From positions 103,251 through 167,250 of IMG/VR virus record IMGVR_UViG_3300031994_000013: DNA of 64,000 bases. One strand, written 5' to 3'. Each line of letters begins with the position of its first letter. Position 1 is the first letter of the stretch. The DNA is from a virus (lineage: Duplodnaviria; Caudoviricetes). The position numbers and the translations under genes are program-made. Below, piece by piece: positions 11,113-58,761 of the stretch. The notes beneath the pieces were generated by a model. It was given only the letters and a program-made list of their open reading frames with translations, had not been told where the DNA came from and made no database searches.

Positions 11113-13002
11113 TTATTCCCCCATAATATTTTCCCAAGATTGGATATTAGAACGATAAGTGCTATTTACAGTAGGAATATACATTAAGCGTGCAGATAAA
11201 GAACGATAAGTTTGTGTTATTGGTTGGTCAAAGCCATAATAAAACATTCCATTGTTTTGTTCATAATACCACAAGCCGCCAGCAATTGCTAGATTGGTGC
11301 CATTAAGTCTAGCGGTAGTCCATAAGTTATCACCAACGGGCACAGCACTATTCGCGCCGGTGCATTGTATTGGGATATAAACCCAATCAAATTCCTCCGT
11401 GCCTTTGCCAAAAGCAGAAATCCAATCAGAAGTAGAGGGGACAGGGAAACCTATGGCCTTATAATTGTTTGCGTCGATTGTAGCACTATAATTGAAACTA
11501 GTGCAAATATATGGAACGCCGCCATTATACTCACCATTACCTACGACATCTACGCCGCCTATCATACGCCAGATATTGCCCCAAGGATTTTCTACTCCAC
11601 GGTAAGAAATTGCTCTTTTCCCTTCTTCGCTATAAGAAGTTCCATTATTAATTGTGCTATTTGCAGCGCCTGTAATATTGCCAAGACTTGCAGTAGAACC
11701 AGTGATAGAAGCACAGTTTTCGCCATTACGATTAGGAATTGTGCTAATACCTTCTTCCAATGCGGCTTGTCCATTGAGCATGCCATACTCAACTAATTGT
11801 AACATTTGCATTGCACTTTCATAAGCCAAGTTAGTAATATGCCAATCGGCGCCACGATTCTGTGCGATTTGTTCAGCATCAAAGACTGTAAAGTTTTTAC
11901 CTGCACCACTGACTGGTTTAACATTAGCAATAGAAGATAATTTAGAACTATTAACAGCAAAAGTCTCATCATTTTCTAAATAACTATTGCCAACCTGCGC
12001 GCTGCCTTCATAAGCAGAAATTAAAACATAATCTAGCTCGGTGCCATCGGGGCGCTTAAATAAGGGGTGAAGTTTAAAGCCAGGGGTGGCGGTATAAGAT
12101 AATAAAAGTGTTTCTTTATTTATTATGTTGTCAGTTACATCATTAAAACTTCTTAAGTAATAAAATTTAGGTTGATAGACCATAACTTGGCCATTGCTGC
12201 CATCATCTTTATAATTATTGTCTCCATACCAAGCAACGATTTGACCGCTGTCATTAACATTACACCTGCGGCGGCCGCCATACATTTTATATTCATCAAA
12301 GTCAGTGCCCTGACTTTTATTTTTAGCATCTTGCACTCGTATAAAAGTCCTATTGGGGTAATCAATTTCCAAGCCTACTACATCCTGTAAATGATAATCA
12401 CCGCTTTTAATAAGTGCAGACACGATATCTTCTTCCTTAACAGACCCATTGGTAACATAACCATCATTTCCAACTACTACAATTTGTCCAGCATATTGTG
12501 TGCCAATATAACTAGCACTTTCGCCGCTAGTTTCCTCTTTAATTTCATCAATTTGAGATTGTAAATCTCCTATTGTGTCCGTAAAAGATTGTTCGATTGT
12601 ATTAAAGTTATCAGTAATAGCTTTTTGTGTCATACTGCCATCTTCAGCATTACCAATGTCTTTATAATATTTAGTAATATTAGCAATCTCACTAATGCTA
12701 TTATCAGGATAAGTGGTCTTAAGCGAAATGGTTGAACTATCATTACCCGTATCTACAACTTTATCAATCGTTAGCTTTTTTATTTCTGTGTCGGCGGTCG
12801 CAGTTATATCATTTAAAGCGGCAGTAACATTATTAAGTGCGGCGATTGAATTTTGATTATTGGTATTGGTTTGTTCTGTAATAGTTTCAATGTTCTCGGC
12901 CGCGGTAGTAGCAATTTGGGTGGCTTCTTGTGCCTGTGCTACATATGCCGCCAACTGTTGTGGAGTCAATGATTTTGCTAATATAATATCAATTATATCC
13001 AT
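11113..13002 (-). CDS. putative tail fibre/virion protein
   Basis: GQVMVYQPKFYY, HPLF, YRGVENPWGNIW motifs seen in phage fibre-like proteins. Confidence 0.65.
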   Translation of the reverse strand: MDIIDIILAKSLTPQQLAAYVAQAQEATQIATTAAENIETITEQTNTNNQNSIAALNNVTAALNDITATADTEIKKLTIDKVVDTGNDSSTISLKTTYPDNSISEIANITKYYKDIGNAEDGSMTQKAITDNFNTIEQSFTDTIGDLQSQIDEIKEETSGESASYIGTQYAGQIVVVGNDGYVTNGSVKEEDIVSALIKSGDYHLQDVVGLEIDYPNRTFIRVQDAKNKSQGTDFDEYKMYGGRRRCNVNDSGQIVAWYGDNNYKDDGSNGQVMVYQPKFYYLRSFNDVTDNIINKETLLLSYTATPGFKLHPLFKRPDGTELDYVLISAYEGSAQVGNSYLENDETFAVNSSKLSSIANVKPVSGAGKNFTVFDAEQIAQNRGADWHITNLAYESAMQMLQLVEYGMLNGQAALEEGISTIPNRNGENCASITGSTASLGNITGAANSTINNGTSYSEEGKRAISYRGVENPWGNIWRMIGGVDVVGNGEYNGGVPYICTSFNYSATIDANNYKAIGFPVPSTSDWISAFGKGTEEFDWVYIPIQCTGANSAVPVGDNLWTTARLNGTNLAIAGGLWYYEQNNGMFYYGFDQPITQTYRSLSARLMYIPTVNSTYRSNIQSWENIMGE

Positions 13003-13004
13003 TA

Positions 13005-13421
13005 TTATACCTCCATATTCCAGCCATATACATCTGGTGCCCAGATATTGTTATCCATATTACTTACATATATATGTCCTTCTTTATCTGGATAATACAC
13101 TTTATCACCAGTTTGGTATGCGTCATGTGCTCCTGCGGGCTGTTTCCATACTGGAATTACACCAGGTAATGCGACTTCTGTATATAGAGATGTCGCTATA
13201 TCGGGCGTCCAATCTGCCTGAGAAGCATGAGATTGTATAACTTTATATAGTTTATTTAAATAACTAATGCGTTCTCCCGCCTCATATTCCTTACGCGGTT
13301 TCCACACAGGAAATAATTCAATGCCACTTAAGGCTTGTTCGTCTGATAGGGCGGCCGCAGCTTCTTCAATAAGCGCTCGCAGCTGTCTTGCTTTAGCTAA
13401 ATTAATCATTATTCTCACCAC
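13005..13421 (-). CDS. tandem CBM5/12-like protein, copy 2
   Basis: paralogue of 10451-10861. Confidence 0.75.
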   Translation of the reverse strand: MVRIMINLAKARQLRALIEEAAAALSDEQALSGIELFPVWKPRKEYEAGERISYLNKLYKVIQSHASQADWTPDIATSLYTEVALPGVIPVWKQPAGAHDAYQTGDKVYYPDKEGHIYVSNMDNNIWAPDVYGWNMEV

Positions 13422-13635
13422 CTAAAAGTATGGTTAAGATTTCTTCTGCTGTATGATTTTCTTCAGGAATGGGCTCTCCTTCGATATATGTTCTACCAGA
13501 ATTTATTGGGTCATATGCTTCAATATAGTTTTGCCTATCTCTAGTAACATAATATCCAGCATCAGAAAAAGTGTGTGTAAATTCACGCCCATTAATTGTT
13601 ACATTTTCAACTTGTATCATTTTTTTATCCTCCAT
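13402..13635 (-). CDS. small fibre-associated protein
   Basis: paralogue of 19372-19635 (IQxEN..ING...SDAG..EAYDP..SGR). Confidence 0.65.
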   Translation of the reverse strand: MEDKKMIQVENVTINGREFTHTFSDAGYYVTRDRQNYIEAYDPINSGRTYIEGEPIPEENHTAEEILTILLGGENND

Positions 13636-33434: not shown

Positions 33435-33510
33435 TATTATGTTGAAAGGGGAAAGGAACCCAATCAACGAAATATAAATTGCGGGTAGGGAACCGCAAGG
33501 AGACTATATT

Positions 33511-35927: not shown

Positions 35928-36210
35928 TTTCTGCTTGTGTTTAATGAGCACGAGCCTTGTAAAAGAAAATATAGTTCAGCGGGATACTGGCTTATACTAG
36001 TTGACATTTTCTTTAATACAATCTCCAGCGTGAGTAAAAACCGCCTTGGACTGGGTGAGATGCCTATCGTTGCGGCCGCCAACGAAGTAACGTAAACAGT
36101 TATGAGCGGTTATAATTACCTTGCTATCAGGTCTTAATTTAGGATAGCTACTTATAGGTAAGACTATACGGGTGCGGCGTTCGTCAGCTCAGAGATAGCA
36201 TGCCGAATTT

Positions 36211-36351
36211 GCCCGGTTAGCTCAGTCGGTAGAGCATGCGGCTGTGACAGAGAGATGATTTGGTAATCATGTGAGGGACGCCCACGTTGCGAGTTCAATT
36301 CTCGCCTCTGTATTAACCGCAGTGTCGGGGGTTCGAGCCCCTCACCGGGCG
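36211..36351 (+). tRNA. tRNA-Asn(GTT) interrupted by tRNA-like insert 36246-36313
   Basis: TGCGG CTGT|TAA CCGCA after removal. Confidence 0.9.
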
Positions 36352-36450
36352 GTCAAGTTGGAGGATAGAACAGGCAGCTATCGCCCATTGTTAGGAGATG
36401 CGGGAGTGTCGCCCCGCCCAGCATTAATTTTATAAGAATGAGGTAAATTT

Positions 36451-36999
36451 ATGGCTCTAAAAATTCTCAGCCCATGGCAGGTTTGGTATGCTGATGTAAA
36501 GGCAATGTTTCAGGAAGATAATGAAATTGGTGTAATATTTGATAATGATACATTAGAGCTTACTGTGTATGTAGAGAATGCAGATAAGGCTGATGCCCTA
36601 GGACAGCTTCTACCTACTGAAAAGCATTTTGGTAATCAGGTTGTAAAGGTTAGCGTCATTCCCGCGAATGTACCTAAGACCGCATTAAAGCTAAATCGTG
36701 CGAATCTTTATGAAAGGGCATTTGCTGATAATCCTGCACTAGAAAAGGTAGTGACAATTGAAGGCGTTATGTCTAATACACTAACTTATGTTGTCTTTAA
36801 GAAACAAGTAGTACAGTATTATATTGATGACCTTGGCGATATCTATGGTAATAGAACTACTTTGTATCAAGAGATTGCAAAGAATATATTTGAAGCAGCG
36901 GAAGGCGTGTTTTTCTGTACGGCAAATGAAACAGAATTTAAGTTAAATATGACTAATCATGGTTGGATTACAACTACTTGTTGTAGTTCAAGTAATTGA
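36451..36999 (+). CDS. hypothetical phage protein
   Basis: 182 aa, VFKKQVVQYY.DDLGD. Confidence 0.7.
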   Translation: MALKILSPWQVWYADVKAMFQEDNEIGVIFDNDTLELTVYVENADKADALGQLLPTEKHFGNQVVKVSVIPANVPKTALKLNRANLYERAFADNPALEKVVTIEGVMSNTLTYVVFKKQVVQYYIDDLGDIYGNRTTLYQEIAKNIFEAAEGVFFCTANETEFKLNMTNHGWITTTCCSSSN

Positions 37000-37058
37000 C
37001 TTTTTTCTAAATTTATGCTATAATAAATATATCAAAAGGGAACGAAAGTTCCCAATAT

Positions 37059-37130
37059 GGCCCTATGGTCTAATGGCTATGATACGTGACTGTCTATCAC
37101 GAGGTTGCAGTTCAATTCTGCGTAGGGTCG
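37059..37130 (+). tRNA. tRNA-Asp(GTC)
   Basis: cloverleaf, G73. Confidence 0.9.
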
Positions 37131-37138
37131 TTGCCTTA

Positions 37139-37258
37139 AAGACGGTTCAGCAATTATTTTGAAAATTTATGCAGTATAATAAAGGGGCGGGTTCGAATCC
37201 CGCAGCATAAGGTGGGCACTTATGTTTGGTGTAGCGGTAGCATTCATTTCGCCGTCTT
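37139..37258 (+). ncRNA. CAGCAA/Y-like RNA 2 with permuted tRNA domain
   Basis: AAGACGG/CCGTCTT; T-arm, closed acceptor, D-arm order. Confidence 0.8.
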
Positions 37259-37264
37259 GATTTT

Positions 37265-37352
37265 CCTACTCAAGCATAATTGGTACATGCCACGGCCTTA
37301 TAAGCCGGAGACCCTCACAAGGTTAGTCCACGTTCAAGTCGTGGGAGTAGGA
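37265..37352 (+). tRNA. tRNA-Ile(TAT) with long variable region
   Basis: CCTACTC/GAGTAGG, loop CTTATAA, A73. Confidence 0.8.
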
Positions 37353-37355
37353 TTT

Positions 37356-37472
37356 TAGACCTGTCAGCAATTATTTCTTTTGCATGTGGAGCACGTATGT
37401 GATGGTTCGAATCCATCTTTGGGCCGATGCGCCCAAATAGCTCAATGGTAGAGCGCGTAATAAGTGGGTCTA
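37356..37472 (+). ncRNA. CAGCAA/Y-like RNA 3 with permuted tRNA domain
   Basis: TAGACC/GGTCTA; GATGGTTCGAATCCATC, TTTGGGC/GCCCAAA, TAGCTCAATGGTAGAGC. Confidence 0.8.
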
Positions 37473-37551
37473 GTTTTTATATGGAACTAATCTATCCTGA
37501 GTTCCTGCGGTTCAAGGATAGGGCGGTGGCTGCCCAAAGTCGCAATTATAT

Positions 37552-37669
37552 GGCCCCTTAGCCCAATTGGCAGAGGCAATAGACCATCAATAGCCAGAGC
37601 GAAATGAGGTCATCACTCATATTGATGTTCAAAATCTATCAAGTATCAGTTCGAATCTGATAGGGGCTA
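37552..37669 (+). tRNA. tRNA-Leu(CAA) interrupted by mini-tRNA insert 37585-37628
   Basis: ATAGA C|TCAAAA TCTAT after removal. Confidence 0.85.
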
Positions 37670-37748
37670 TTAAAAAAATCGCGGGACGCGAAGAAAAAAG
37701 AGTAATGCGTCTGCTTATATAATACTATTTATGTAGGAGGCGATAATT

Positions 37749-38354
37749 ATGAAAAAATGGGAAAAATTCTCTGAAAAAGAGTTGCTTGAGATTATTCAAA
37801 ATAGTCGAAGTTATAGAGAAGTCGCTCAAAAATTAGGTTATAATCCTGATAGTGGTAGTGGTATGAAAGCTATTAAGGATATGATAGAGACGAAACAATT
37901 TGATATATCGCATTTTTTAGGGCAGGGTTGGAATAAAAATAATTTTGATTATTCGCGTTTCCAGTATGGGAAAAATATTAAAGCCGTATTAATGTTAGAT
38001 GCTTTAATTAATTTACGCGGCAGAAAATGTGAAAAATGCGGTTTAACAAAATGGGAAAATTTTCCTATTCCACTAGAAGTACATCATATTGATGGAGACC
38101 ATTTGAATAATACATTAGATAATTTACAAATTCTTTGCTGCAATTGTCATGCTTTAACAGCGAATTTTAAAGGACGAAATCAGCTTAGCGTAGAACGACA
38201 AAATGAAAAAGTATCTGAAGAACAATTAGTAGAAGCATTAAAGACAACTTCTAATGTTCGTCAAGCTCTTTTAAAAGTTGGCTTGACTAGTCGTGGGCAC
38301 AATTATGATAGAGCATATGATTTGATATATAAATATCAAATAAAACAACAATAA
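37749..38354 (+). CDS. HNH homing endonuclease
   Basis: CEKC, LEVHHIDGDHLNN..NLQILCCNCH. Confidence 0.9.
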   Translation: MKKWEKFSEKELLEIIQNSRSYREVAQKLGYNPDSGSGMKAIKDMIETKQFDISHFLGQGWNKNNFDYSRFQYGKNIKAVLMLDALINLRGRKCEKCGLTKWENFPIPLEVHHIDGDHLNNTLDNLQILCCNCHALTANFKGRNQLSVERQNEKVSEEQLVEALKTTSNVRQALLKVGLTSRGHNYDRAYDLIYKYQIKQQ

Positions 38355-38359
38355 TATTA

Positions 38360-38462
38360 TAGGCGTTTTCAGCAATTACCTTTATAGGTTATGGGTTCGA
38401 GTCCCATTTTGCAATCCTTTTTGCGAATCGTCCAATAGGTAGGACAATAAATAAGACGCCTA
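38360..38462 (+). ncRNA. CAGCAA/Y-like RNA 4 with permuted tRNA domain
   Basis: TAGGCGTTT/AGACGCCTA; ATGGGTTCGAGTCCCAT, TTTGCAA/TTGCGAA, GTCCAATAGGTAGGAC. Confidence 0.8.
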
Positions 38463-38791
38463 GTATTTTAAAGATGGATTTTTTCCATCTTATTTTTATA
38501 ATTGACTTTTCTCTAAAATTATGATATAATTTTTTTAGAAAAAAGGAAATGAGGAAATAATATGGATAAGGAAACTCTAAGTAGCACTGCGACAAAAAGT
38601 CAATTTATTGATTCTATTTATAATTGGTTAATGCGCACGCTCGATGAGAAGGGCAACGGACAATATAAGGAATGTTTTCAAAAAGAGGGCTCAAGTATAA
38701 TTTGTTCTCTTCCAGATAATTATTTTAATAGTTATACTATTCCTCATGGCACTAAAATTGAAATGAAATTTATTAGTAAAAAGGGATAATA

Positions 38792-39226
38792 ATGAAAATT
38801 TATACTTCTTATTTCGCGCAAATGCGTAATTTTCCTAAAAATCTTGTTTCGCTTTCAACCGCAGTTTGGAATCCTAAATGGTTGCCGCTTGGGCGCGATA
38901 AGCAAGGTCATATTTGGCTAGATATTCCGCCGCTAAAGCCAGGATATAATTGTAATGGCTTATGTAATGGAAAATGTAATCCAAAGCATCCACAGGATTG
39001 TGCTTTTCTTCAAGAATATCGCAAACAGTTGAACGGTATAGATATTCATAATATTCTAAATGAATTACAAGTTTTAAAAAATGATATTGAAGTTGCGGAG
39101 AGCCTAGAGAATGTAGAGTTTGTGCTATTATTTTTTGAGACTCCGGATAATCCTTGTAGTGAGCGGCAAGTCGTTATTGAATGGCTTAAAGAAAATAATA
39201 TCGAAACTGAGGAATGGAGAAAATGA
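38792..39226 (+). CDS. DUF488-like protein
   Basis: MKIYTSYF, LLFFETP..CSER..W. Confidence 0.6.
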   Translation: MKIYTSYFAQMRNFPKNLVSLSTAVWNPKWLPLGRDKQGHIWLDIPPLKPGYNCNGLCNGKCNPKHPQDCAFLQEYRKQLNGIDIHNILNELQVLKNDIEVAESLENVEFVLLFFETPDNPCSERQVVIEWLKENNIETEEWRK

Positions 39227-39719
39227 TAAAAATTATTAAGCATGGGCACGCGCAATATCATATGACATGTAAATTTTGTGATTGTTTATTCTCTTTTGAA
39301 GACAGTGATATAAAATTTTCTGGTAATCAGCGAGATTGGATAGAATATATCGAATGCCCAGAATGCGGGCATGAGATTGATATTGTTAATCGTGCGTTCT
39401 ATAAGTTTAAGGAGAGTAAAGACTAATATAATGAAAGATAGGAAAATTTTTTTTATAGCAGTGTTAATTGCTATATTACTTTTTATAGGCGTAGTATTTT
39501 TACAAGAATCGTCCTGTAACATAGTATATAATAATGGCATTTGTACAAGATGCGGAGGACACTATATTTTTCAGCAGGCGGTAGGACATCGATATAATAT
39601 TCGATATATTTACCAATGTGATAAATGTGGCAAGTTAATTGAAATTAATTCTATTCGTTAATTATTTGACTTCTTTCTAAATTTATGCTATAATTATTAT
39701 AGAAAGTGAGGGAAAGAAA

Positions 39720-40067
39720 ATGAAGGAATACAGTATGAAATCTCATAATCGCCGCGCTCATCAGCGTTGGCTTAATAAGTTTTGCCGCGATGTTAATAAA
39801 TCTATTTATGATGATAATCTGTGGCGCGGGCGCTTTGTTGTAGAACAGGTTTCTACTCAGATGGATTGGTTTGAGGATAAAAGCGGTGGTATCCTTCGTT
39901 GTGTTCTTCGCTTTCGTGATAAGAAAACTGGCTGTACTAAGCTTTGTTATACCGATTGTCTTGAAGTTGCTTGGAATATGTTTTTTCAGATGAATGACTT
40001 TATTGTAAAAGATTGTGCTGTTTGGGATAAGGAAGACCCTTATAAGGAGATTGAATCATGGAGATAA
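39720..40067 (+). CDS. hypothetical phage protein
   Basis: promoter and RBS upstream; DNLWRGRF. Confidence 0.65.
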   Translation: MKEYSMKSHNRRAHQRWLNKFCRDVNKSIYDDNLWRGRFVVEQVSTQMDWFEDKSGGILRCVLRFRDKKTGCTKLCYTDCLEVAWNMFFQMNDFIVKDCAVWDKEDPYKEIESWR

Positions 40068-40265
40068 AGAGACCCGTTACTGTAGAGTTTAATTATTATA
40101 ATGATAATAACGAATTTGATGACGATGTTAATTTAACTTTTAGAACTACGCCAGATATGACTATTGGGCAATTACACGCTTTTTGTAAGCGTTTTGCTAT
40201 TGCACTTAGTTTTTCACCAAAGCAGGTTGAAGAAGCTTTTGGTGAAGATATAGAAGATAGAATTT

Positions 40266-40350
40266 AGAAGGGTGCCTGAGTGGTCAATAGGAGCGGTTTG
40301 CTAAATCGTCGTAGGGTAACCTACCGCAAGTTCGAATCTTGTCCCTTCTG
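40266..40350 (+). tRNA. tRNA-Ser(GCT)
   Basis: class II cloverleaf, G73. Confidence 0.9.
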
Positions 40351-40431
40351 TTCGCCAATTTAACTGGTTGGCGCGCCAGCTATGGATTAAATAGCGACCC
40401 AGCTCGCGGGCATTCTAAATAGCGAGCACGT

Positions 40432-40503
40432 ACCCTTCTAGGCTAACGGAAAGACCATACGGCTACGAACCGTAAAATGAAAGTTCGATTCTTTCGGAGG
40501 GTG
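40432..40503 (+). tRNA. tRNA-Arg(ACG)
   Basis: TACGG CTACGAA CCGTA; imperfect D stem. Confidence 0.8.
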
Positions 40504-40511
40504 TCAATTAT

Positions 40512-40621
40512 GCGGTGGTATCCAAGCAGACAAAGGGGCCAACCGGTAAGTTTGGTGCCTACGCCGGTATGCTAGCTAGAACCGTGGGCTTCGCAGGTGC
40601 AAATCCTGACCCGCCGCACCA
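40512..40621 (+). tRNA. aberrant Tyr-like tRNA with enlarged variable arm
   Basis: GCGGTGG/CCGCCGC-ACCA; loop CGGTAAG. Confidence 0.5.
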
Positions 40622-40629
40622 TTTATTAT

Positions 40630-40713
40630 GCGTCAGTGTGACTAGTAGCGAGGTCAGGTGACTGTAAATCACCCACATTAGAAACATCGGTGGTGCAATT
40701 CCATCCTGGCGCA
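40630..40713 (+). tRNA. tRNA-Tyr(GTA)
   Basis: GGTGA CTGTAAA TCACC. Confidence 0.85.
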
Positions 40714-40720
40714 TTAGCCG

Positions 40721-40792
40721 AGACCAGTCAGCAATAATTGTATTTTTTGCTAGAAATGCAGCGGGTCGGCTCCGCCTAAGATGAACTGGTCT
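40721..40792 (+). ncRNA. CAGCAA/Y-like RNA 5
   Basis: AGACCAGT/ACTGGTCT + CAGCAA. Confidence 0.7.
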
Positions 40793-40798
40793 AGTTTT

Positions 40799-40946
40799 GT
40801 GCCCGTAGCTCAGTTGGTAGAGCACTTGACTTTGGGGTAGTAATGTAAAGAGCATACTATTAGAGACGTCTAATAGAGGACAAGGTGCAATACCTTGATA
40901 CTCCACCATAATCAAGGGGTCGCGAGTTCGAGCCTCGCCGGGCACA
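40799..40946 (+). tRNA. tRNA-Lys(TTT) interrupted by tRNA-like insert 40834-40908
   Basis: CTTGA CTTT|TAA TCAAG after removal. Confidence 0.9.
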
Positions 40947-40950
40947 TTAT

Positions 40951-41022
40951 AGGAGCTTAGGACAATGGCTAGTCTTTCTGTCTCCAAAACAGACGATGGG
41001 CGTTCAAATCGCTCAGCTCCTG
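40951..41022 (+). tRNA. tRNA-Trp(CCA)
   Basis: cloverleaf, loop CTCCAAA. Confidence 0.9.
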
Positions 41023-41038
41023 TCACTTATGAAAAAAT

Positions 41039-41114
41039 GCGTCTGAACCCTGACGGTCGGGGGAGGGCCTGCAAAACCCTTTTTTATTAGTTGGTTCAAC
41101 TCCAACCAGGCGCT
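41039..41114 (+). tRNA. tRNA-Cys(GCA)
   Basis: loop CTGCAAA, U73. Confidence 0.85.
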
Positions 41115-41842
41115 TAAAGGAGAGATAATATTATGAATGAACTTAAAAGATTAGTTAACCAAAAGACTGACCGCCCCGTAACACCTACGACTACAACAAC
41201 CGTGCCAGTCTCACAGTCTGTAACAGCCACTTCCCTTCAATATGGTTGGATTTGTCCTAAATGTGGCTCTGTGATGGCACCAAATCAAACAAGTTGTATT
41301 TTCTGCATTCCAACTTTTAATGTTACGACTGCGACGCCAAATATGTCACCTGTAGTAATTTGTACTAGTAAAGGTTATAGTCGGGACTGAAATATTTGAC
41401 TTTTATTCAAATTTGTGCTATAATATATACATAAAGAATGAAAGAAAGGATTGATAACAGTATGCGTAAGTTGGTTTTTTCTTCTTCTTGGAGTAGGGTT
41501 AAGCAAGCGAAGATGCTAGATGACCCTCAGTAACTGGCGCTTTATCATCAGTAGGTGATACGAAATTACGGTAAGTCGTTATACGGCGCCACCGTTTTTT
41601 TAAAAAAAGAAAGGTAGAATAAGTTATGTTTAGTTATGTAGTTACTTTTTTCGACAATGAAATTAGAGCAACCACGACCGAAAAGGGCATTGTGGCGGCG
41701 GAAACCTATGGCAAAGCCGCGGATAGGCTTGTGAGCTTTTATGGAAAATCTTTTCTAATGACTATGGCTCTTACTGAACTTAATGACATTCTAACCGAAG
41801 AAGAAATTACAGAAGAGTTTGAAACTCAGGGAGAAGATTAAA

Positions 41843-42088
41843 ATGTATCATCGTACTCATATTCGTTTAATTACACAAACCGATGCAGCAAATTTCGTAG
41901 CGAGTCTTAATCGTGATGGCACGACTGACCACTATGTGCTTGAAACAGTAGATGGTAAGGTCCGTGTTAGTGCCCGTTCATTACTTGGCGTGCTTTATTT
42001 TGTTTCAGAGCATAATAAGGAAACTTATTTAGTTAATGAAACTAATGATGGAGTGATTCCAAGCGGTATCGACCAGTATCGTATTTAA
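41843..42088 (+). CDS. HPr-like protein
   Basis: AANFV...VSARSLLGVL (Ser46-like motif). Confidence 0.6.
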   Translation: MYHRTHIRLITQTDAANFVASLNRDGTTDHYVLETVDGKVRVSARSLLGVLYFVSEHNKETYLVNETNDGVIPSGIDQYRI

Positions 42089-42101
42089 TGCGATACTTTG
42101 A

Positions 42102-42232
42102 TGGCGTGTAGCCAAGTGGTTAAGGCACAGGACTTTCAGGCAATAGCATAAGTAATGCCATAGAATAATAGTTCAAATCTATTTTGCCTGTGACTCCTGT
42201 ATTCGTAGGTTCGACCCCTACCACGCCAGCCA
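42102..42232 (+). tRNA. tRNA-Gln(TTG) interrupted by tRNA-like insert 42137-42191
   Basis: CAGGA CTTT|GAC TCCTG after removal; encoded CCA. Confidence 0.92.
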
Positions 42233-42237
42233 TTTAT

Positions 42238-42299
42238 TAGGCTTTGTCAGCAACTATTACAAAAATTTGACTTGAAATCAAAGGAACAAAGAAAGCCTA
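42238..42299 (+). ncRNA. CAGCAA/Y-like RNA 6
   Basis: TAGGCTTT/AAAGCCTA; internal TTTGA CTTGAAA TCAAA. Confidence 0.75.
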
Positions 42300-42309
42300 G
42301 AAATTTTTA

Positions 42310-42409
42310 TAGACCAGCACAGCCATTTATTTTAACAATGGATAAATTATTTTTTTCTCAATAAAAAAAATATAGAAGGTTCAAATCCTTCAAAATTAAA
42401 ACTGGTCTA
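42310..42409 (+). ncRNA. CAGCCA/Y-like RNA 7
   Basis: TAGACCAG/CTGGTCTA; CTCAATA loop + T-arm GAAGGTTCAAATCCTTC. Confidence 0.7.
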
Positions 42410-42764
42410 GTTTTTATTACAAGAAAGGACGCAAAATAATGGAAGTAATGTATCATCGTAAGAACGGTAAGCGCTATGAAGTTTATGATTATATAACAGA
42501 TAAGCATACCATTGCTATTTGTTACGATACGGCACAGGCGGGGCAGTGCGGCCAGGGTTGGTGTAGAATTCCTTTGAAAGAATTGGTTCCAGAATGTCAT
42601 GCAAATAAGACTACAGGGCAATTTGAGTCTAACACTATTAAAAATGCCATTAAACGAAATTTACAACCAGTAGCTTGGCGTTGTACTGATGGTACAGTAT
42701 TTGACCATTCTAAGATTGATGAAGCAATTGAATATCAAAGAACACTTATGACGACGGAGCAAGA

Positions 42765-43205
42765 ATGAGACAGTTAATAATCGCGCGAAAAGATTTACAG
42801 ATGAGCCCTGGTAAATTGGCGGCACAAGTAGCACATGCAAGTTGGGCATTTTTATCGCAGCAAATTCGCAGCTGTACTATTAACGAACAAGATACTCAAA
42901 ATACGTGGATTAAATTATGTATTAATACTGATACGTATAATGAATGGTTTTGTGGTATCTTTACAAAAACTGTTTGCGAAGCTAAAAATTATAATCAACT
43001 GATGAAAGCAGTTGACTATGCACGCGAATTGGGGTTAGAAGAGGGAGTAGATTTTTTCCTCATTAAAGATGCTTGTCTCACGGAGCTTACTCCCGAAGAA
43101 ACTGATGAAAATGGTGTTGGACGCACATTAACTTGTATTGGTTTTCGTCCATTACCTGACGAAATCGCCCATGCGATTTCAAAGCATTATCAACTTTATA
43201 AGTAA
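42765..43205 (+). CDS. pth2: peptidyl-tRNA hydrolase Pth2 family
   Basis: RKDLQMSPGKLAAQVAHA, IKDACLTE, TCIGFRP. Confidence 0.9.
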   Translation: MRQLIIARKDLQMSPGKLAAQVAHASWAFLSQQIRSCTINEQDTQNTWIKLCINTDTYNEWFCGIFTKTVCEAKNYNQLMKAVDYARELGLEEGVDFFLIKDACLTELTPEETDENGVGRTLTCIGFRPLPDEIAHAISKHYQLYK

Positions 43206-43208
43206 ATA

Positions 43209-43338
43209 ATTGTGGTGGCGGAATAGGTAGACGCTAGACGGTTTGAACCCGTGCATCAAGGAAGACTTGGCTTGGCTATGAGGTCATAGATTTTACTCAG
43301 AAGGAAATCATGTAAGGTGCAAATCCTTACCCACAATT
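43209..43338 (+). ncRNA. tRNA-like RNA (Leu-type D/T arms, no normal anticodon arm)
   Basis: ATTGTGG/CCACAAT, GGCGGAATAGGTAGACGC, GTAAGGTGCAAATCCTTAC. Confidence 0.7.
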
Positions 43339-43427
43339 TAGAATGTAACGGCTGATTACATATACATTTTCGCAATCTATATAGATACAATCAAGTTACC
43401 CCATGCGATGCAAGGTAACATCAGCCA

Positions 43428-43513
43428 TCGGCCTACACAGCAATTAATTTCAAGAAAATTCTATCTGTTGAAGAAAGCATATTCTAGCGGGTTGAAAACC
43501 CGTAATAGGCCGA
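43428..43513 (+). ncRNA. CAGCAA/Y-like RNA 8
   Basis: TCGGCCTA/TAGGCCGA; GCGGG TTGAAAA CCCGT. Confidence 0.75.
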
Positions 43514-43518
43514 GTTAT

Positions 43519-43708
43519 GCTCTTGTAGCTCAATGGTAGAGCAGCGCACTTGTCGAGTTAGTTTAAAGTAAAACACCCGAATCACAGGGAAAAGACCGTA
43601 TGATAAACTAATTGATTGACGAATCAATTAGGCGAAGATATGTGAGTTCGTAACTCACACTCGGCTCCAGTAATGCGCAGGTTGTAGGTTCAAGTCCTAT
43701 CGGGAGCT
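43519..43708 (+). tRNA. tRNA-Thr(TGT) interrupted by tRNA-like insert 43552-43669
   Basis: GCGCA CTT|GTAA TGCGC after removal. Confidence 0.9.
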
Positions 43709-44526
43709 TTTAACTGTCATCTTAGGAAGTGTTATTTATGAGGACGACGGCAGAAAAACGACATAATGATTATACGAAAGCAATCCGTAAGCGTAGGATT
43801 GACCGCGAGACACAGCCCAGTGGATATGACTGGTACAATAATCTTCATCAATATAGTAAAAATAAGATTCATTGTTCTTGTCCAATGTGTTCTGTGAAAA
43901 CTAATAATCGCGGCAATAATGGTTGGAAACCCAATACCTTATGGCGTATCACCGATCAAAAGAAGTTGGATGCTTTACAATATAACGAGGAAGATGAATA
44001 ATCTTCCTCGTTTTTTATTTGACTATTTCTTAAAATTATGATATAATTTATATACAATATTGGATAGGCGAAATATTAATCAAGAAAAGAGGGAGCCATA
44101 ATGGAAAAGAAAGAATTAGTTGCAGGTAAGCGCTATCAATGGCCAGATGTAACTCCTGGCGGCCGCATGATTAATGGTCTTTTTACTGGAAAATACGAAA
44201 AGAACGGTAACGCTTTATTACAGTGTCGTAATGGCGACATCTGGTCTGTTTCACCACAAAATTGTGAGCCAATGCCAAGAAAGGAAAAATGATATGAAGA
44301 ATTTTATTAAATTAACTAATACTGATGGGACTGCACTTTATATTAATTATAAAATTATTGAAAGTTTATCTCAACATAAAGATAAAGATTATACTTATAC
44401 TATCCTAGCCACAATTGGGTCAGAAGATGGTTTTTATAGAGTAAAAGAATCACCAGAAGCAATTCTAGCATTAATTGATGTTTTGACAAATTAAAAAAAA
44501 TATAGTATAATGAAAGGAATGATAGT

Positions 44527-45290: not shown

Positions 45291-45956
45291 ATGGGAAAGA
45301 TTTATAAAGTTACAAATAAAATTAATGGTAATATTTATATTGGCCAAACACGACAACCAATTAATACTCGTTGGTTAAAGCACTGTTATTCAGCAGAAAC
45401 CTCTAATGATAAAGATTATTTTTGTCCTCTACATAATGCTATTCGTAAATATGGACGAGATAGTTTTCTAATAGAAGAAATTGAAGACTGTGATAATGAT
45501 TTATTAAATGAACGTGAACGTTATTGGATTCAATTTTATGATAGTTATAATAATGGTTATAATGCCGCTTTGGGTGGAGAAGGGCATACTAAATATGACT
45601 ATGATAAAATTATAGATTATTTTTTAAAACATGGCAATAATCTTTTAGCTACTTGTCAAGAATTTAATATTTATGACCAAGTGGTGTATACAGCTTTACA
45701 ATCTAAAAATATTGATTATAAAGCATTAAAAAATATAAATCCAAAATGTAAATATGATAAATGGATTCTATTAGTAGAACACAATCTTATTTTCAAACAC
45801 ATAACGGACATTGACCTTTATTTACATAAAAATAATGCACATGGAAATATACGACGATGCCTAAATGGAATTACAGAAAAAGCTTATGGCTATCATTGGA
45901 AGGAGATAGAAAAAGATGGAAATCTTTTTAACCTCGGATACTCATTTTTCACATAA
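45291..45956 (+). CDS. GIY-YIG homing endonuclease
   Basis: KIYKVTN..YIGQT, RW..H, E..WI, GYN; NUMOD1-like AYGYHW tail. Confidence 0.9.
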   Translation: MGKIYKVTNKINGNIYIGQTRQPINTRWLKHCYSAETSNDKDYFCPLHNAIRKYGRDSFLIEEIEDCDNDLLNERERYWIQFYDSYNNGYNAALGGEGHTKYDYDKIIDYFLKHGNNLLATCQEFNIYDQVVYTALQSKNIDYKALKNINPKCKYDKWILLVEHNLIFKHITDIDLYLHKNNAHGNIRRCLNGITEKAYGYHWKEIEKDGNLFNLGYSFFT

Positions 45957-48228: not shown

Positions 48229-48307
48229 TCAAAATTATGTTATAATAAATACATAAAGAAAAAACCTGCGGTCTTGACAAAAGACTAAGATGAAAAGGAG
48301 AAAAAAT

Positions 48308-49834
48308 ATGGCTAATACTTTTATGAACGCGATGAAGTCCCAGAATAATTTTAAGCTTACAGAGAATCAAGCAGTAGCTAAGAAGTCAACCATGTCTAAG
48401 CTTTATGACCTATTTGCTCTTGGCGGAGCTTACCGTACCCGTAGTGAGAGTGATTGTGTGCTTCTCTTTAAGGAAGCCTATATGGAGAGCCCTCGATATG
48501 CGATGAAGTGCCTGACGTACCTCAGAGATATTTTGGAGGGTCAAGGCGAGCGTCGTTTCTTCCGTGTATGCCTGCATTGGCTTGGTAATAACTATCCTGA
48601 AGCCGCCCGCCAGAATCTGCGTGAGTGGGTAGATGGTAACTTTATCCGTTGGGACGACCTGTTTGTACTCTTCGATACTCCTGTTGAGCGTGAAGTAATG
48701 GCACTCATTCGTCATCAGCTAACCCGCGATATGGCTATTTATAATGATGATCCTCGGGCATCGGTATCTCTTTGCGCGAAGTGGATGCCTTCCGAGAATA
48801 CATCTAGTGCTACTACTCGTCATAACGCTCGCCGCGTTATGGCTGCTCTTGAGCTTACTCCTCGTGAGTATCGTAAGATGCTCTCTATGCTGCGTGAGCG
48901 TATTAAGGTAGTAGAGCGTCTTATGTCTCAGAACCGTTGGGAAGAAATTGACTTCTCTAAGCTTCCTTCTCGCGCTGGTCTTATCTATCGTAATGTGTTT
49001 AAAAGTAAGGGCCTGATTGCCGAAAAGTACAAGGCTTTTGCACAGGATAAGACTACTAAGGTCAATGCTGGTACTCTATATCCTTATGATGTAGTGGCGG
49101 CCGCCCTTAAGTGTATGGGTAATGGTTACGGTGAGCCTGCCCTGAACGATACCGAGCGCCTTATGGTAAACAAGTATTGGGACAACCTTACTGATTACTT
49201 TAAGGGCGCAACTCTCAACGCTATGGTAGTTTGCGATACCTCTGGGTCGATGACTTGGAGCGGCAATGGCACCGTAAAGCCTATTGACGTTGCTGTATCT
49301 CTTGCACTCTATACCGCAGAGCGTGCTAAGGGGCCTTTTGCAAATCACTATATCTCCTTCAGCCATACTGCTCGTCTAGTTGAGACTAAGGGTGTGGATT
49401 TTTGCGATAAGGTAGCACGCATCGTAAGTACCAATCTTTGTGAGAATACTAATCTACAAAGCGTATTTGACCTAGTGCTAAATACTGCGATGCAGAATAA
49501 TGTTGATCCAGAAGATATGCCTAAGACTCTTATCGTCGTAAGTGATATGGAAGTTGATTCAGCAACTGGGCACTATGGTTATCAAAAGACGGACTTTATG
49601 TCTTCTATTCGTCAGAAGTGGGAAGCTAGGTGCGGCGGCTGGTATGATTTTCCCAACCTTGTGTATTGGGATGTCAATGCTCGCAATAACACCTTCCTTG
49701 AGGATTCTAAGACTGGCGTAACCTTCGTAAGCGGTTGTTCTCCTGTACTATACGAGCAAATTATGTCTGGTAAGACGTCTATAGATCTAATGCTTGAAAA
49801 ACTAAATAGTGAGAGATATAACGCTATTCACTAA
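48308..49834 (+). CDS. DUF2828 / TROVE(Ro60)-like protein with vWA domain
   Basis: RDI..GQGERR, RWDDL, AKWMPSE, LYPYD, VCDTSGSM, SDME, SGCSP. Confidence 0.85.
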   Translation: MANTFMNAMKSQNNFKLTENQAVAKKSTMSKLYDLFALGGAYRTRSESDCVLLFKEAYMESPRYAMKCLTYLRDILEGQGERRFFRVCLHWLGNNYPEAARQNLREWVDGNFIRWDDLFVLFDTPVEREVMALIRHQLTRDMAIYNDDPRASVSLCAKWMPSENTSSATTRHNARRVMAALELTPREYRKMLSMLRERIKVVERLMSQNRWEEIDFSKLPSRAGLIYRNVFKSKGLIAEKYKAFAQDKTTKVNAGTLYPYDVVAAALKCMGNGYGEPALNDTERLMVNKYWDNLTDYFKGATLNAMVVCDTSGSMTWSGNGTVKPIDVAVSLALYTAERAKGPFANHYISFSHTARLVETKGVDFCDKVARIVSTNLCENTNLQSVFDLVLNTAMQNNVDPEDMPKTLIVVSDMEVDSATGHYGYQKTDFMSSIRQKWEARCGGWYDFPNLVYWDVNARNNTFLEDSKTGVTFVSGCSPVLYEQIMSGKTSIDLMLEKLNSERYNAIH

Positions 49835-49904: not shown

Positions 49905-50825
49905 GTGGTAATTATGGTTACTCTTATAGATTTAACAGGAAAGAAAATAGATAAATTATTAGTATTAGAAAAAGCTTTGCCGCATAATAATCACGTTTGG
50001 TGGAAATGTCAATGTGATTGTGGAAATATATGTGAAAAAAGTAGCGAATATTTACGTTCTAGCACTCGACCGCGGGATTGTGGATGCTCTAAATTGAAAA
50101 ATATTAAAAAGAAAAAAGCAGAAGAACGTTATAATAAACTAGTGGGACAACGATTTGGAAGATTATTAGTAGTTTCTCGTACAGAAAGAACTGCGGGAGA
50201 AAAGAAAATTCCAATTTGGCTTTGTAAATGTGATTGTGGTAACTATAAAGAAGTTCCAAGTTATAGCCTTTTAAAAGGTCATACTCAATCTTGTGGCTGT
50301 CTTATTATAGATAATAAATGGGTTGATATTACAGGGCAAACTTTTGGAAGATGGACTGTTCTTAAACGAGATCCTAATAATCATAAAAAATGGATTTGTA
50401 AATGCGAATGTGGAACTGAAAAATCGGTGGATGGATATAACTTAAGAATTGGTCAAACACAATCTTGTGGTTGTATTAATTACTCTATCGGAGAATATAA
50501 TATAACCCAATTATTAAAGACTAATAATATAAAATTTATTAAAGAATATACTAATTCAGAATTACAGTTAAAACGTTTCGATTTTGCTATTTTGAACGAA
50601 CAAGAACAAATTGTTCGTTTAATTGAATTTGATGGTGAACAGCATTATACAGAACGTAATCGTTGGAATAATAGTGATTCTTTAAAAACGATTCAACAGC
50701 GCGACAAAGAAAAAAATCAATATGCACTTTCTCATAATATTCCGCTAGTCCGTATTCCCTATTGGGAACGAGACAAGATTACTTTAGAAATGATTATGGG
50801 AGATCAATATTTAGTCAAAGAATAA
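49905..50825 (+). CDS. putative homing endonuclease (Cys-repeat DNA-binding units + PD-(D/E)xK-like domain)
   Basis: 3x GQ.FG..W.CxCxCG..SCGC; RFDF..IEFDGEQHY..RD..K. Confidence 0.8.
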   Translation: MVIMVTLIDLTGKKIDKLLVLEKALPHNNHVWWKCQCDCGNICEKSSEYLRSSTRPRDCGCSKLKNIKKKKAEERYNKLVGQRFGRLLVVSRTERTAGEKKIPIWLCKCDCGNYKEVPSYSLLKGHTQSCGCLIIDNKWVDITGQTFGRWTVLKRDPNNHKKWICKCECGTEKSVDGYNLRIGQTQSCGCINYSIGEYNITQLLKTNNIKFIKEYTNSELQLKRFDFAILNEQEQIVRLIEFDGEQHYTERNRWNNSDSLKTIQQRDKEKNQYALSHNIPLVRIPYWERDKITLEMIMGDQYLVKE

Positions 50826-57432: not shown

Positions 57433-58761
57433 ATGTCTTATTATGGTTATGTAGTAAAGGTGGAGCATCTGCGCCCGCACTCTAATGCTGATAGGCTTCA
57501 GGTGGCTACTTTCTTCGGAAACGATACTATCGTTAGCCTTGATACTCAGCTTGGCGAGATGGGTATTTACTTTCCTGTAGACGGTCAGCTTTCTGAGCGT
57601 TATTGCGCAGTAAATGATCTGGTGCGCCGTAAGGATGAGAACGGTAACTACTGCGGTGGTTATCTTGACCCTGACAAGCGCAACATCAAGGCTATCAAGC
57701 TTCGTGGCGAGAAGTCTGATGGTTTGTTTATGCCTATCACTTCACTGGCCGATTTCTGCACTATCTCCGATCTTAAGGTGGGTGACCGCATTGATGTTCT
57801 GAATGGTGAGGAAATTTGCCACAAGTATATTCCTCATAGCAATGCATCCGTGCAATATCATGGCGCGAAGGCACCTCGCAAGGCAAAGGCTAACATTGCT
57901 CCTACCTTCTACGAGCACGTAGATACCGAGCAGCTTGCTTATAACCTCGATAAGTTTAAGGTCGGCGATACTGTACAATTGACCCTGAAGATGCACGGCA
58001 CTTCTGGCCGTACTGGCTATCTGCCTCTACTTCAGAAGCGTTCTATCTGGGATAAGATTTTCCATCCTCACAAGGAGATTTATGAGTATGGTTATATAAC
58101 CGGAACTCGTCGTGTAGTTCTTGCGGGCGACCGCAAGGGCGGTTACTACGAGTCTGATGACTTCCGTCGCGCGATGGCGGCTAAGTTTGAGGGCAAGCTT
58201 CGTAAGGGCGAGGTAGTGTATTACGAAATCGTGGGCTTCCAGGGCTACGAGGGCGCACCTATCATGTCTGAGGTTCAGAACTCTAAGGTGAAGGACCCTG
58301 AGTTCTCTAAGCAGTATGGTAAGACCACCATATTCTCTTATGGTTGCGCGGTTGAAGGTGGATATACTGACGACCAGCCTTGCTGCGAAGTATATGTCTA
58401 TCGTATGACTATGGTAAACGCCGATGGTGATGTGGTAGAGTATTCTCCCGCACAAATTAAGGAGCGCTGCGAGCAGATGGGCGTTCATACTGTAATGAAG
58501 TTCGAGACCTTCGTAATTCCTGAGAATATAAATCCCGGCGAGTATGTTCTCCGTAAGGTAGAACAGTACTTTGATGGTCCTGACCCTATCGGTAAGACCC
58601 ATGTGCGCGAAGGTGTAGTGGCGCGTATCCTTAACCGTCCTAACTTCGCAGTTTATAAGCATAAGAATTTTAGTTTCAAGGTTCTTGAAGGCATCGCTAA
58701 GGATGAGGCCGTTGCGCCGGATATTGAGGAGGCTCAGGAACTAATTGAAGAAGGAGAATAA
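57433..58761 (+). CDS. ATP-dependent RNA ligase (Rnl2/DRB0094-like) with N-terminal OB-like domain
   Basis: HSNADRL, KLRGEKSDG; motif I KMHGTS, YEIVG, REGVV, KHKN..F. Confidence 0.88.
   Translation: MSYYGYVVKVEHLRPHSNADRLQVATFFGNDTIVSLDTQLGEMGIYFPVDGQLSERYCAVNDLVRRKDENGNYCGGYLDPDKRNIKAIKLRGEKSDGLFMPITSLADFCTISDLKVGDRIDVLNGEEICHKYIPHSNASVQYHGAKAPRKAKANIAPTFYEHVDTEQLAYNLDKFKVGDTVQLTLKMHGTSGRTGYLPLLQKRSIWDKIFHPHKEIYEYGYITGTRRVVLAGDRKGGYYESDDFRRAMAAKFEGKLRKGEVVYYEIVGFQGYEGAPIMSEVQNSKVKDPEFSKQYGKTTIFSYGCAVEGGYTDDQPCCEVYVYRMTMVNADGDVVEYSPAQIKERCEQMGVHTVMKFETFVIPENINPGEYVLRKVEQYFDGPDPIGKTHVREGVVARILNRPNFAVYKHKNFSFKVLEGIAKDEAVAPDIEEAQELIEEGE

Follow-up and report, generated by a model that had tools for sequence, protein, structure and literature searches.

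A phage tRNA-Thr gene interrupted in its anticodon by a tRNA-shaped insert: a putative intron and its possible removal by tRNA end-processing enzymes

How could a tRNA be made from a gene whose anticodon is interrupted by a piece of DNA that itself looks like a tRNA, and what would become of the interrupting RNA? The case studied here comes from a phage genome of 167,250 bp, an IMG/VR virus record with direct terminal repeats, of which we analysed bases 103251-167250; this stretch of 64,000 nt is called the window, and all positions below refer to it. The tRNA genes of the phage all lie in a single array on the + strand, at ~33.8-43.8 kb, and a fraction of 0.89-0.99 of the words sampled from positions 36000-43800 of this array was present in runs labelled as sheep gut metagenome. 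Many genes of HNH and GIY-YIG nucleases and of phosphoesterases lie in the array as well, together with non-decoding tRNA mimics in the form of YrlA-like RNAs. Its tRNA-Thr(UGU) gene, at 43519-43708, is interrupted in the anticodon by an insert of 118 nt (43552-43669). From the sequence of this insert, and of others in the phage and its relatives, we propose that it may be an intron that would be removed by RNase P and an RNase Z-like enzyme, the resulting nick being sealed by an RNA ligase. We put the probability of this reading at about 0.45 and weigh it below against its rivals.

The insert in the tRNA-Thr gene

The Rfam tRNA model scores 49.3 bits over 43519-43708, in an alignment that places 121 inserted nt in the anticodon loop, and ARAGORN, when introns are allowed, calls a tRNA-Thr(tgt) with a 118-nt intron. 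Removal of the insert restores the loop CTT/GTAA (here and below, a slash marks a junction), and the spliced tRNA-Thr product folds as a cloverleaf. The gene and its insert have the following parts.

43519-43551, + strand: 5' exon of tRNA-Thr(UGU), with the acceptor 5' strand, D arm, anticodon stem 5' strand and C32, U33 and U34
43552-43669, + strand: tRNA-shaped insert, putative intron, 118 nt (Rfam tRNA model on the insert alone, 29.8 bits; folding z = -4.28)
43552-43558, + strand: acceptor-like 5' strand of the insert, its +1 being the predicted RNase P site; 7/7 pairs with 43659-43665, one of them U.G
43561-43574, + strand: D-like arm of the insert, with a 4-bp stem and a 6-nt loop without the usual GG
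43575-43641, + strand: cargo block of ~60 nt in place of the anticodon and variable arms (MFE and centroid structures coincide)
43642-43658, + strand: T-arm of the insert, with a 5-bp stem and a 7-nt loop starting TTC, abutting the acceptor 3' strand
43659-43669, + strand: acceptor 3' strand of the insert (43659-43665), discriminator T (43666) and encoded CCA (43667-43669); predicted 3' cut after 43669
43670-43708, + strand: 3' exon of tRNA-Thr(UGU), beginning with G35, U36, A37 and A38, then the anticodon stem 3' strand and, in the remainder to 43708, the variable loop, T arm, acceptor 3' strand and discriminator

A preliminary description of this locus, made from the letters of the sequence, had seen in the insert an expanded tRNA-like element with acceptor, D-like and T-arm parts. 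Each of these parts was found in its place, and the insert alone matches the full Rfam tRNA model (29.8 bits for a gathering score of 29, E 6.9e-5), in an alignment where a 60-nt insertion substitutes for the anticodon arm. The extra hairpins that the description had placed where the anticodon and variable arms belong are also present, but they span ~60 nt rather than the ~70 nt first estimated. Between the terminal helix and the D-like arm lies a two-base 'TA' linker. The first element of the cargo block is a 3-bp hairpin (43576-43589). The second, at 43598-43641, is a long hairpin ending in a 10-bp distal stem with a GACG tetraloop (43618-43621) as its cap; in a variant that occurs alongside, 2 nt are missing at 43602, in an internal loop.

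This architecture is improbable by chance. The MFE of the insert is -33.6 kcal/mol (z = -4.28), with an equally good fold in 0 of 200 dinucleotide shuffles, and an acceptor helix with an abutting T-arm at the exact ends arose in 3 of 200,000 shuffles of the Thr insert. The insert nevertheless lacks the canonical features of a decoding tRNA that we looked for: it has no 5-bp/7-nt anticodon arm and no GG in the D-loop, and its T-loop carries T at the position of A58 of tRNAs, the T-arm adopting in the MFE form an alternative 7-bp stem with a 3-nt loop. ARAGORN makes no tRNA call on the Thr insert itself. Two C/D-box-like matches within the cargo (E 0.44 and 4.5) were treated as chance.

The sequence of this locus recurs in contigs of two kinds. 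Contig X1 of a DNA run, which is possibly the source sample, covers 43302-43692 with 0 differences, and a contig of RNA library X3 carries the same DNA over 43569-44015. Exact patterns derived from the Thr and Lys inserts had no match in IMG/VR or GTDB genomes, and blastn of 43100-43900 had none among GenBank phages, the phage's own or near-identical records being possibly excluded from both searches.

Shared edges and shifting presence of the inserts

The Thr gene is one of several; the preliminary description mentioned neither the companion inserts nor the edge rule and the phage ligase treated below. ARAGORN finds 15 tRNA genes in the phage, and Rfam at least 2 further tRNA matches (40630-40713 and 41038-41114). 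Five of the 15 have inserts, all of them tRNA-shaped and 44-118 nt long.

36210-36352, + strand: tRNA-Asn(GUU), insert 36246-36313 (68 nt, CCA-less)
37551-37670, + strand: type-I tRNA with anticodon CAA, of uncertain amino-acid identity, insert 37585-37628 (44 nt, CCA-less); Rfam 41 bits
40799-40946, + strand: tRNA-Lys(UUU), insert 40834-40908 (75 nt, CCA-ended); Rfam 57 bits
42102-42232, + strand: tRNA-Gln(UUG), insert 42137-42191 (55 nt, CCA-less)
43519-43708, + strand: tRNA-Thr(UGU), insert 43552-43669 (118 nt, CCA-ended)

Every insert of the window has a 7-bp terminal helix, with at most 1 mismatch, and a 5-bp/7-nt hairpin that abuts the 3' strand of this helix. In its default mode ARAGORN misses all five interrupted genes, and when introns are allowed it mislabels two of them, reading 40799-40946 as Gln and 42102-42232 as Glu. 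Cuts at the tRNA-like ends of the inserts give instead Lys(UUU) and Gln(UUG). The former fits the Rfam alignment and a comparison with bacterial tRNA-Lys, no uninterrupted Lys ortholog having been found; the latter fits the uninterrupted Gln(ttg) genes of relatives, both in alignment and in synteny. The interrupted genes include the phage's only Thr, Lys, Asn and Gln tRNA genes.

Do the edges of such inserts obey a common rule? We examined by script every ARAGORN intron call in 96 sequences (597 kb), in which 20 of the 119 tRNA calls had an intron. Eleven of these 20 calls, corresponding to 9 distinct inserts, were tRNA-shaped in the sense of having a 7-bp terminal helix and an abutting T-arm. 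We placed the 5' cut at the +1 of the insert and the 3' cut behind the CCA in the 5 inserts that carry one, or behind the discriminator in the 4 that do not. A 7-nt anticodon loop closed by 5 bp results in 9/9 distinct inserts, and ARAGORN then calls an intron-free tRNA. The window contributes 5 intron calls, all of which follow this rule. The remaining 9 of the 20 calls lie outside it: 5 belong to another class, a hairpin followed by an ACAGCAA motif (in the records G005 and G006), and 4 are short or doubtful. Depending on the insert, 3 to 44 of 200,000 shuffles complied with the inner part of the rule. Position -1 is U in 8/9 inserts, and U at this position is the preference of bacterial RNase P.

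The rule also predicts where the Thr gene would be cut. Its edges alone would permit cuts at 35/36 or 36/37 as well, because GT stands at both junctions, and the rule selects 43551/43552 and 43669/43670. We had considered a single fixed insertion site at 35/36 for all genes, which is contradicted by the tRNA with anticodon CAA (32/33) and by the inserts of G006 (34/35). As a search tool, the descriptor of the insert gives well over a hundred matches (uncounted) on the bare window and is useful only when an outer tRNA is required around it.

What stands between the constant ends is far more variable, as the preliminary description had anticipated in suggesting that the insert tolerates cargo. 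The Thr(UGU) gene of G006 carries at the same site a homologous CCA-ended insert of 71 nt, with the 'TA' linker and the 4-bp D-stem sequence of the window insert, and this homologue has a 13-nt arm where the window insert has its 60-nt hairpin block. Across the family, in inserts of 44-118 nt, the acceptor and T-arm are the only constant parts. A GACG tetraloop hairpin occupies the anticodon-arm position in 4/9 inserts (Thr, Lys and Asn in the window, and Thr in the relative L033); the 44-nt and 55-nt inserts have none. In the whole genome, 8 GACG-capped hairpins have a stem of at least 4 bp, and the only 2 with a stem longer than 5 bp are those of the Thr and Lys inserts. The inserts of the Lys genes of the window and G006 both have G1-C72, G2-C71, G3.U70, G4-C69, A73 and CCA, which correspond to the alanine identity set.

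The comparison of related phages, reached via homologues of a neighbouring 146-aa gene, shows that inserts come and go. In four of them (L004, L005, L006 and L012) the Thr(tgt) gene is uninterrupted and aligns to both exons of the window, as for a clean indel, and their Gln and Asn genes, where present, are likewise uninterrupted and align in the same way. L033 has at the corresponding place of its Thr(UGU) gene a different tRNA-shaped insert, 67 nt long and CCA-less, and G006 carries three tRNA-shaped inserts in all. The three Thr genes with three different inserts have kept CTT/GTAA and the anticodon stem, and their acceptor stems differ at 5 positions with pairing still 7/7. The Lys insert of L033 and L034 is identical to that of the window at 75/75 bases, in neighbouring DNA that is 79% identical, and the Lys exons show three base differences from the window, including a compensatory 2-71 change in L033. 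In run X24, an RNA library, the contig of one relative has the Lys insert yet joins across the Thr insert, and in a second contig the Thr insert is present, differing at 9 positions. These comparisons indicate that inserts were gained or lost independently, in tRNA genes that still look selected. At the DNA level, judging from the sequences, they behave as mobile elements coming and going at anticodon-loop sites, and the interrupted genes look alive: those for Thr, Lys, Asn and Gln are sole copies, the Thr genes have kept their loop halves, and Thr and Lys genes show compensatory changes in their stems.

A possible splicing pathway and its rivals

Since the edges of the inserts are the ends of a mature tRNA, the enzymes that make tRNA ends are implicated. 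RNase P cuts 5' of position +1, leaving a 3'-OH on the upstream fragment, and RNase Z cuts after the discriminator; a 3'-OH/5'-phosphate nick in paired tRNA halves is a type of substrate of ATP-dependent RNA ligases. In the pathway that we propose, the pre-tRNA would display the insert as a second tRNA-like domain. Host RNase P would cut 5' of the insert +1, between U34 and the insert, so that the 5' exon keeps a 3'-OH. An RNase Z-type endonuclease, or another tRNA 3'-end enzyme, would cut directly after the CCA of the insert, or after the discriminator in its CCA-less relatives, and this would give the 3' exon a 5'-phosphate. The exons, presumably held together by the outer acceptor and anticodon stems, could then be joined by an ATP-dependent 3'-OH/5'-phosphate RNA ligase, for which a 442-aa protein of the phage is the candidate; sealing of the anticodon-loop nick would produce a 72-nt tRNA-Thr. 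The RNA released, of 118 nt, would be a CCA-ended mini-tRNA with a 60-nt cargo domain.

Published work bears on the second cut in both directions. Some RNase Z enzymes are reported to cut at the discriminator, or after the CCA where it is encoded, and to accept substrates without D, T or anticodon arm if an acceptor stem is present (PMC7479834). RNase E is reported to cut immediately 3' of CCA in E. coli proline tRNAs (PMC5291269, PMC8860583). Against the pathway, the RNase Z of B. subtilis is reported to be inhibited 1520-fold by CCA in Mg2+, but it may not be the enzyme of the host. The first cut has difficulties of its own: the Thr insert may be a poor RNase P substrate, because of the T at position 58, the D-loop without GG and the 7-bp/3-nt T-arm of the MFE form, and only 3 nt of leader stand between the outer anticodon stem and the insert.

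Which enzymes of the phage could take part? We found no match in it to RtcB, to the PolyA_pol family of CCA-adding enzymes, to RNase Z-like Lactamase_B_2 proteins or to EndA (PF01974). The cutting enzymes would thus be those of the host, since the phage has no matching RNase Z-like or EndA family. A search of the phage for Rnl1 gave no match, the control of this search having matched in no genome. The candidate for the sealing step is encoded downstream of the array.

57433-58761, + strand: putative ATP-dependent RNA ligase, 442 aa, candidate sealing enzyme (phrog_968 'RNA ligase', E 3.7e-69)

A metallophosphoesterase gene follows this gene. The 442-aa protein has a predicted N-terminal OB domain and a predicted nucleotidyltransferase domain, the layout of a putative DraRnl/NgrRnl type, and a K-x-H-G-T motif I. 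It matches TIGR02306 (DraRnl type) with E 2.7e-15 and 56 bits, below the cut-off of 151, and scores 23.9 with PF21189 and 22.3 with PF09414, both below the cut-off of 27. A sequence search of the PDB gave no match, a profile search gave NgrRnl at a non-significant E of 0.44-0.54, and the structure model is unusable (pLDDT 48). The assignment as a putative ligase comes from PHROGs, with Pfam and NCBIfam scores below cut-offs. Also against it as the sealing enzyme, the preferred substrates of DraRnl/NgrRnl-type ligases are nicked duplexes; it is T4 Rnl1 that is known to close nicks in anticodon loops.

The distribution of this gene says little about which phages carry introns. With 8000 scored homologues it belongs to the core genes of the whole phage group, and it occurs in three relatives free of introns, at 75-79% identity. 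G006 is without the 442-aa type and has a different ligase, matching PF09414 with 65 bits; G005, which carries the other class of inserts, has an Rnl1-type ligase (143 bits). We therefore discarded the idea that the 442-aa ligase marks intron carriage, intron-free relatives having it and G006 using another family. A ligase for 3'-OH/5'-phosphate ends is nevertheless encoded in 2/2 viral records with tRNA-shaped inserts (G000 and G006), and also in G005, and the 442-aa ligase might at best be permissive for introns.

We also compared three metatranscriptome runs and one DNA run, all as contigs. Among the contigs of these runs there was no joint assignable to spliced RNA of this phage, and contigs do not show RNA ends. 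A joint from 43552 to 43670, which we considered as splicing, belongs to a 3.9-kb contig of a relative that is ~89% identical, and reflects the gene arrangement of this relative. Other organisms or relatives, with uninterrupted Lys and Gln tRNAs, account for the loose contig ends at 40833 and 42191. The RNA contigs of X3 and X5, from one sample, break off near 43486 and start again at 43569, which points neither way.

The insert might instead be removed by another route, through a dedicated phage nuclease that recognizes the tRNA shape or the GACG hairpin, or through some small RNA, as yet undescribed, that cleaves or splices itself. Edges at +1 and at the discriminator or CCA across 9 inserts require no extra factor. 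The GACG hairpin of 4/9 inserts hints at a recognition element that would be superfluous for RNase P and RNase Z, and an array rich in HNH and GIY-YIG nuclease genes and phosphoesterases, with exons that appear selected, also fits such a route; yet the hairpin is absent from the 44-nt and 55-nt members, and searches admitting E up to 1, or E up to 10 when the insert was the only query, gave no match to a ribozyme family. We consider this route unlikely. It is similarly unlikely, in our view, that no decoding tRNA is made and that the outer tRNA is a scaffold, whose product (the released CCA-ended mini-tRNA, the halves or the whole composite) might act as a decoy for tRNA-targeting host defences or as a regulator. 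Several traits of the inserts are in line with a product of this kind: the encoded CCA and conserved cargo hairpin, the 75/75 identity of the Lys insert when the neighbouring DNA is 79% identical, the alanine-type acceptor set on the Lys-gene inserts of the window and G006, and the presence of YrlA-like non-decoding tRNA mimics in the same array. A scaffold would have no need, however, of exact anticodon halves that sum to a 7-nt loop in 9/9 inserts, and the phage has no further gene for tRNA-Thr, -Lys, -Asn or -Gln besides the split ones, which its relatives keep whole.

The patchy presence and absence of inserts among close relatives, as for a mobile element, could also mean that selfish DNA elements derived from tRNAs, never excised, have killed the tRNA genes. 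This would need five dead genes, of 15 ARAGORN calls and at least 2 Rfam matches, without decay; the outer stems show compensatory changes instead, and all insertions lie within the anticodon loop with frame-exact edges. We find it quite improbable. Introns of a known type, whether self-splicing group I or archaeal/eukaryal with a bulge-helix-bulge, would be the most conventional answer, and group I introns do occupy anticodon loops of bacterial tRNAs. We give this answer hardly any credence, given that the Intron_gpI model, which rests on a conserved P3-P8 catalytic core, is matched neither at the gathering score nor at a limit of E 1, widened to E 10 for the insert on its own, and that the inserts, at 44-118 nt, are under the smallest known group I size; the smallest group I introns known to us have ~200 nt. 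As for the archaeal/eukaryal type, the phage has no EndA-family gene (PF01974), and we know of no bacteria with EndA; moreover, the junctions lie in an asymmetric internal loop of the precursor MFE structure, not in a bulge-helix-bulge, with its 4-bp helix between two 3-nt bulges, and the site is not 37/38.

If the proposed pathway by RNase P, an RNase Z-like enzyme and a ligase holds, it may be part of something broader: a third kind of tRNA splicing, in phages of gut bacteria, beside self-splicing and the archaeal/eukaryal endonuclease route. The RNase P and RNase Z of the cell would excise the intron because it is disguised as a tRNA, a 3'-OH/5'-phosphate ligase would rejoin the anticodon, and stable, chargeable mini-tRNAs would have a job of their own, for instance as decoys for tRNA-targeting defences; the preliminary description, too, had supposed that the excised RNA might have a function. 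The mini-tRNAs might be chargeable since the Lys-gene inserts carry a complete alanine-type acceptor, and their variable cargo arms, including the 60-nt block, would give them their own role. We regard this extension as speculative and doubtful.

Significance and comparison with known systems

Were the pathway confirmed, tRNA splicing catalysed by proteins would be on record for the first time in the bacterial world, with a machinery assembled from universal tRNA end-processing enzymes and a ligase, and the phage tRNA introns that were noted as 'enigmatic' in 2019 would be explained. Under the edge rule, junctions and end chemistry are predicted exactly. The pathway bears on the spread of these introns, as any cell could excise them and only ligase-bearing phages would tolerate them, and on the annotation of tRNA genes, as default finders miss or mislabel such genes. 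It also bears on tRNA conflicts between phages and hosts and on the design of RNAs released from tRNA scaffolds.

Several known systems resemble the proposed pathway in part. tRNA-like elements are excised by RNase P and RNase Z in the case of MALAT1 mascRNA, of plant mitochondrial t-elements and of mitochondrial tRNA punctuation. As in these systems, a tRNA-shaped module would here signal cuts at its own 5' end and at its discriminator or CCA end; there, however, the flanks are separate products that are never rejoined, whereas here they are two halves of a tRNA that would need ligation. In T4, Pnk and Rnl1 repair the host tRNA-Lys after its cleavage by PrrC, which leaves 2',3'-cyclic phosphate and 5'-OH ends that need healing first. 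The likeness is that a phage RNA ligase closes a break in an anticodon loop whose halves are still base-paired. The difference is that this would here be the routine maturation of phage tRNAs, with 3'-OH/5'-phosphate ends and a ligase of another family.

Group I introns (RF00028) share with our inserts the location, the anticodon loop of a bacterial-type tRNA, and a patchy, mobile distribution. Our inserts differ from them in having no group I core, in their length of 44-118 nt and in a tRNA-like architecture that is foreign to group I. The archaeal and eukaryal introns, processed by EndA/TSEN and RtcB or Trl1, resemble the proposed pathway in that proteins excise and then ligate, the body of the tRNA holding the exons. 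They are unlike it in that there is here no bulge-helix-bulge, EndA or RtcB, the site is not 37/38, and the predicted end chemistry is the opposite.

The closest precedent is in phages. It was the only report to emerge from a literature search that covered nested and tRNA-like introns of phages as well as phage splicing dependent on RNase P. Devoto et al. (2019) called the introns in the tRNAs of Lak megaphages enigmatic, gave no mechanism for them, and remarked that the intron of a tRNA-Thr(TGT) 'itself may encode a tRNA' and that introns of this kind do not differ from cohort to cohort (PMC6784885). Both cases have one intron that is identical across samples together with intron-free variants. 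No edge rule was proposed there, and the host was a Lak phage of 540 kb instead of one of ~167 kb. Compared by description, the phage studied here differs in its 60-nt cargo block, its encoded CCA and its five interrupted genes. What is new is a non-Lak phage with five such genes, one of which holds an expanded insert of 118 nt that has a compact homologue of 71 nt; an edge rule, followed by 9 inserts, with a 3' cut either at the discriminator or at the CCA; and the covariation of exons in genes that bear introns.

Structured RNAs and genes in and around the tRNA array

Besides the tRNA-shaped putative introns, the tRNA array and its surroundings encode several other predicted structured RNAs, and further genes:

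33439-33497, cow-rumen-4 RNA match, sub-threshold, within the tRNA array
35932-36076, cow-rumen-3 RNA match, sub-threshold, within the tRNA array
36354-36425, skipping-rope RNA, 51 bits (above cut-off), directly 3' of tRNA-Asn
37355-37475 and 38355-38470, two YrlA-like (Y RNA-like) RNAs, Rfam, sub-threshold (30-36 bits)
37749-38354, 45291-45956 and 49905-50825, free-standing HNH and GIY-YIG homing-endonuclease-like genes, within and adjoining the tRNA array
43209-43340, unusual tRNA-like gene of 130 nt; acceptor paired, D arm of the Leu/Tyr type, T-arm present
43428-43516, structured element directly 5' of tRNA-Thr, with a closing stem, a ACAGCAAT...CTGTT motif and a hairpin
48290-49834, ORF whose 514-aa product matches phrog_850 'RNA-binding protein' and DUF2828/DUF7788

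The element 5' of tRNA-Thr is 94.5% identical to its counterpart in the related phage sequence L033, against 79% for coding DNA close by, and an Rfam search at E up to 1 returned no matches to it. In the tRNA-like gene, about 45 surplus nt separate the anticodon arm from the T-arm, which may represent an insert within the variable region; this gene was called neither by ARAGORN nor by Rfam at E up to 1.

In each of the YrlA-like RNAs, a closing stem precedes the CAGCAAT motif and a tRNA-like module in permuted form, and the 514-aa phage protein is possibly their Ro-like partner. One of the homing-endonuclease-like genes begins 79 nt 3' of the interrupted CAA-anticodon tRNA; such genes might drive the spread of the tRNA-shaped inserts at the DNA level.

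Other unusual tRNAs in related phages and viral records

Two viral records with interrupted tRNA genes (G005 and G006) contain a second class of tRNA-shaped RNAs, interrupted or anticodon-less, and two related phage sequences (L005 and L012) carry a tRNA with a CTA anticodon:

L014 (G005) 12850-13430, - strand, second-class RNAs
L098 (G006) 8413-8664, - strand, second-class RNAs
L005 686-777, CTA-anticodon tRNA
L012 6974-7068, CTA-anticodon tRNA

In the second class, the acceptor, D arm and T arm are normal and enclose a block of 40-50 nt in which a hairpin precedes ACAGCAA(T/A). These RNAs fall outside the rule for tRNA-shaped introns, by which cuts at the first insert base and after the discriminator or CCA leave a 7-nt anticodon loop. 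The CTA anticodon would read the amber stop codon, and its presence in L005 and L012 therefore suggests that part of the phage group recodes a stop codon.

The acceptor of the Lys-gene insert

Two inserts start with GGGG and end with CTCC-A-CCA:

40834-40908, insert in the tRNA-Lys gene of the window, 75 nt
L098 2338-2403, - strand, insert in a tRNA gene of G006

For the Lys insert, Rfam gave a single hint: the permuted tmRNA acceptor end, matched at 6.5 bits. RNAs putatively excised from these inserts might be charged with alanine: both have an acceptor composed of G1-C72, G2-C71, G3.U70, G4-C69, A73 and CCA, the alanine identity set, on which tmRNA relies as well.
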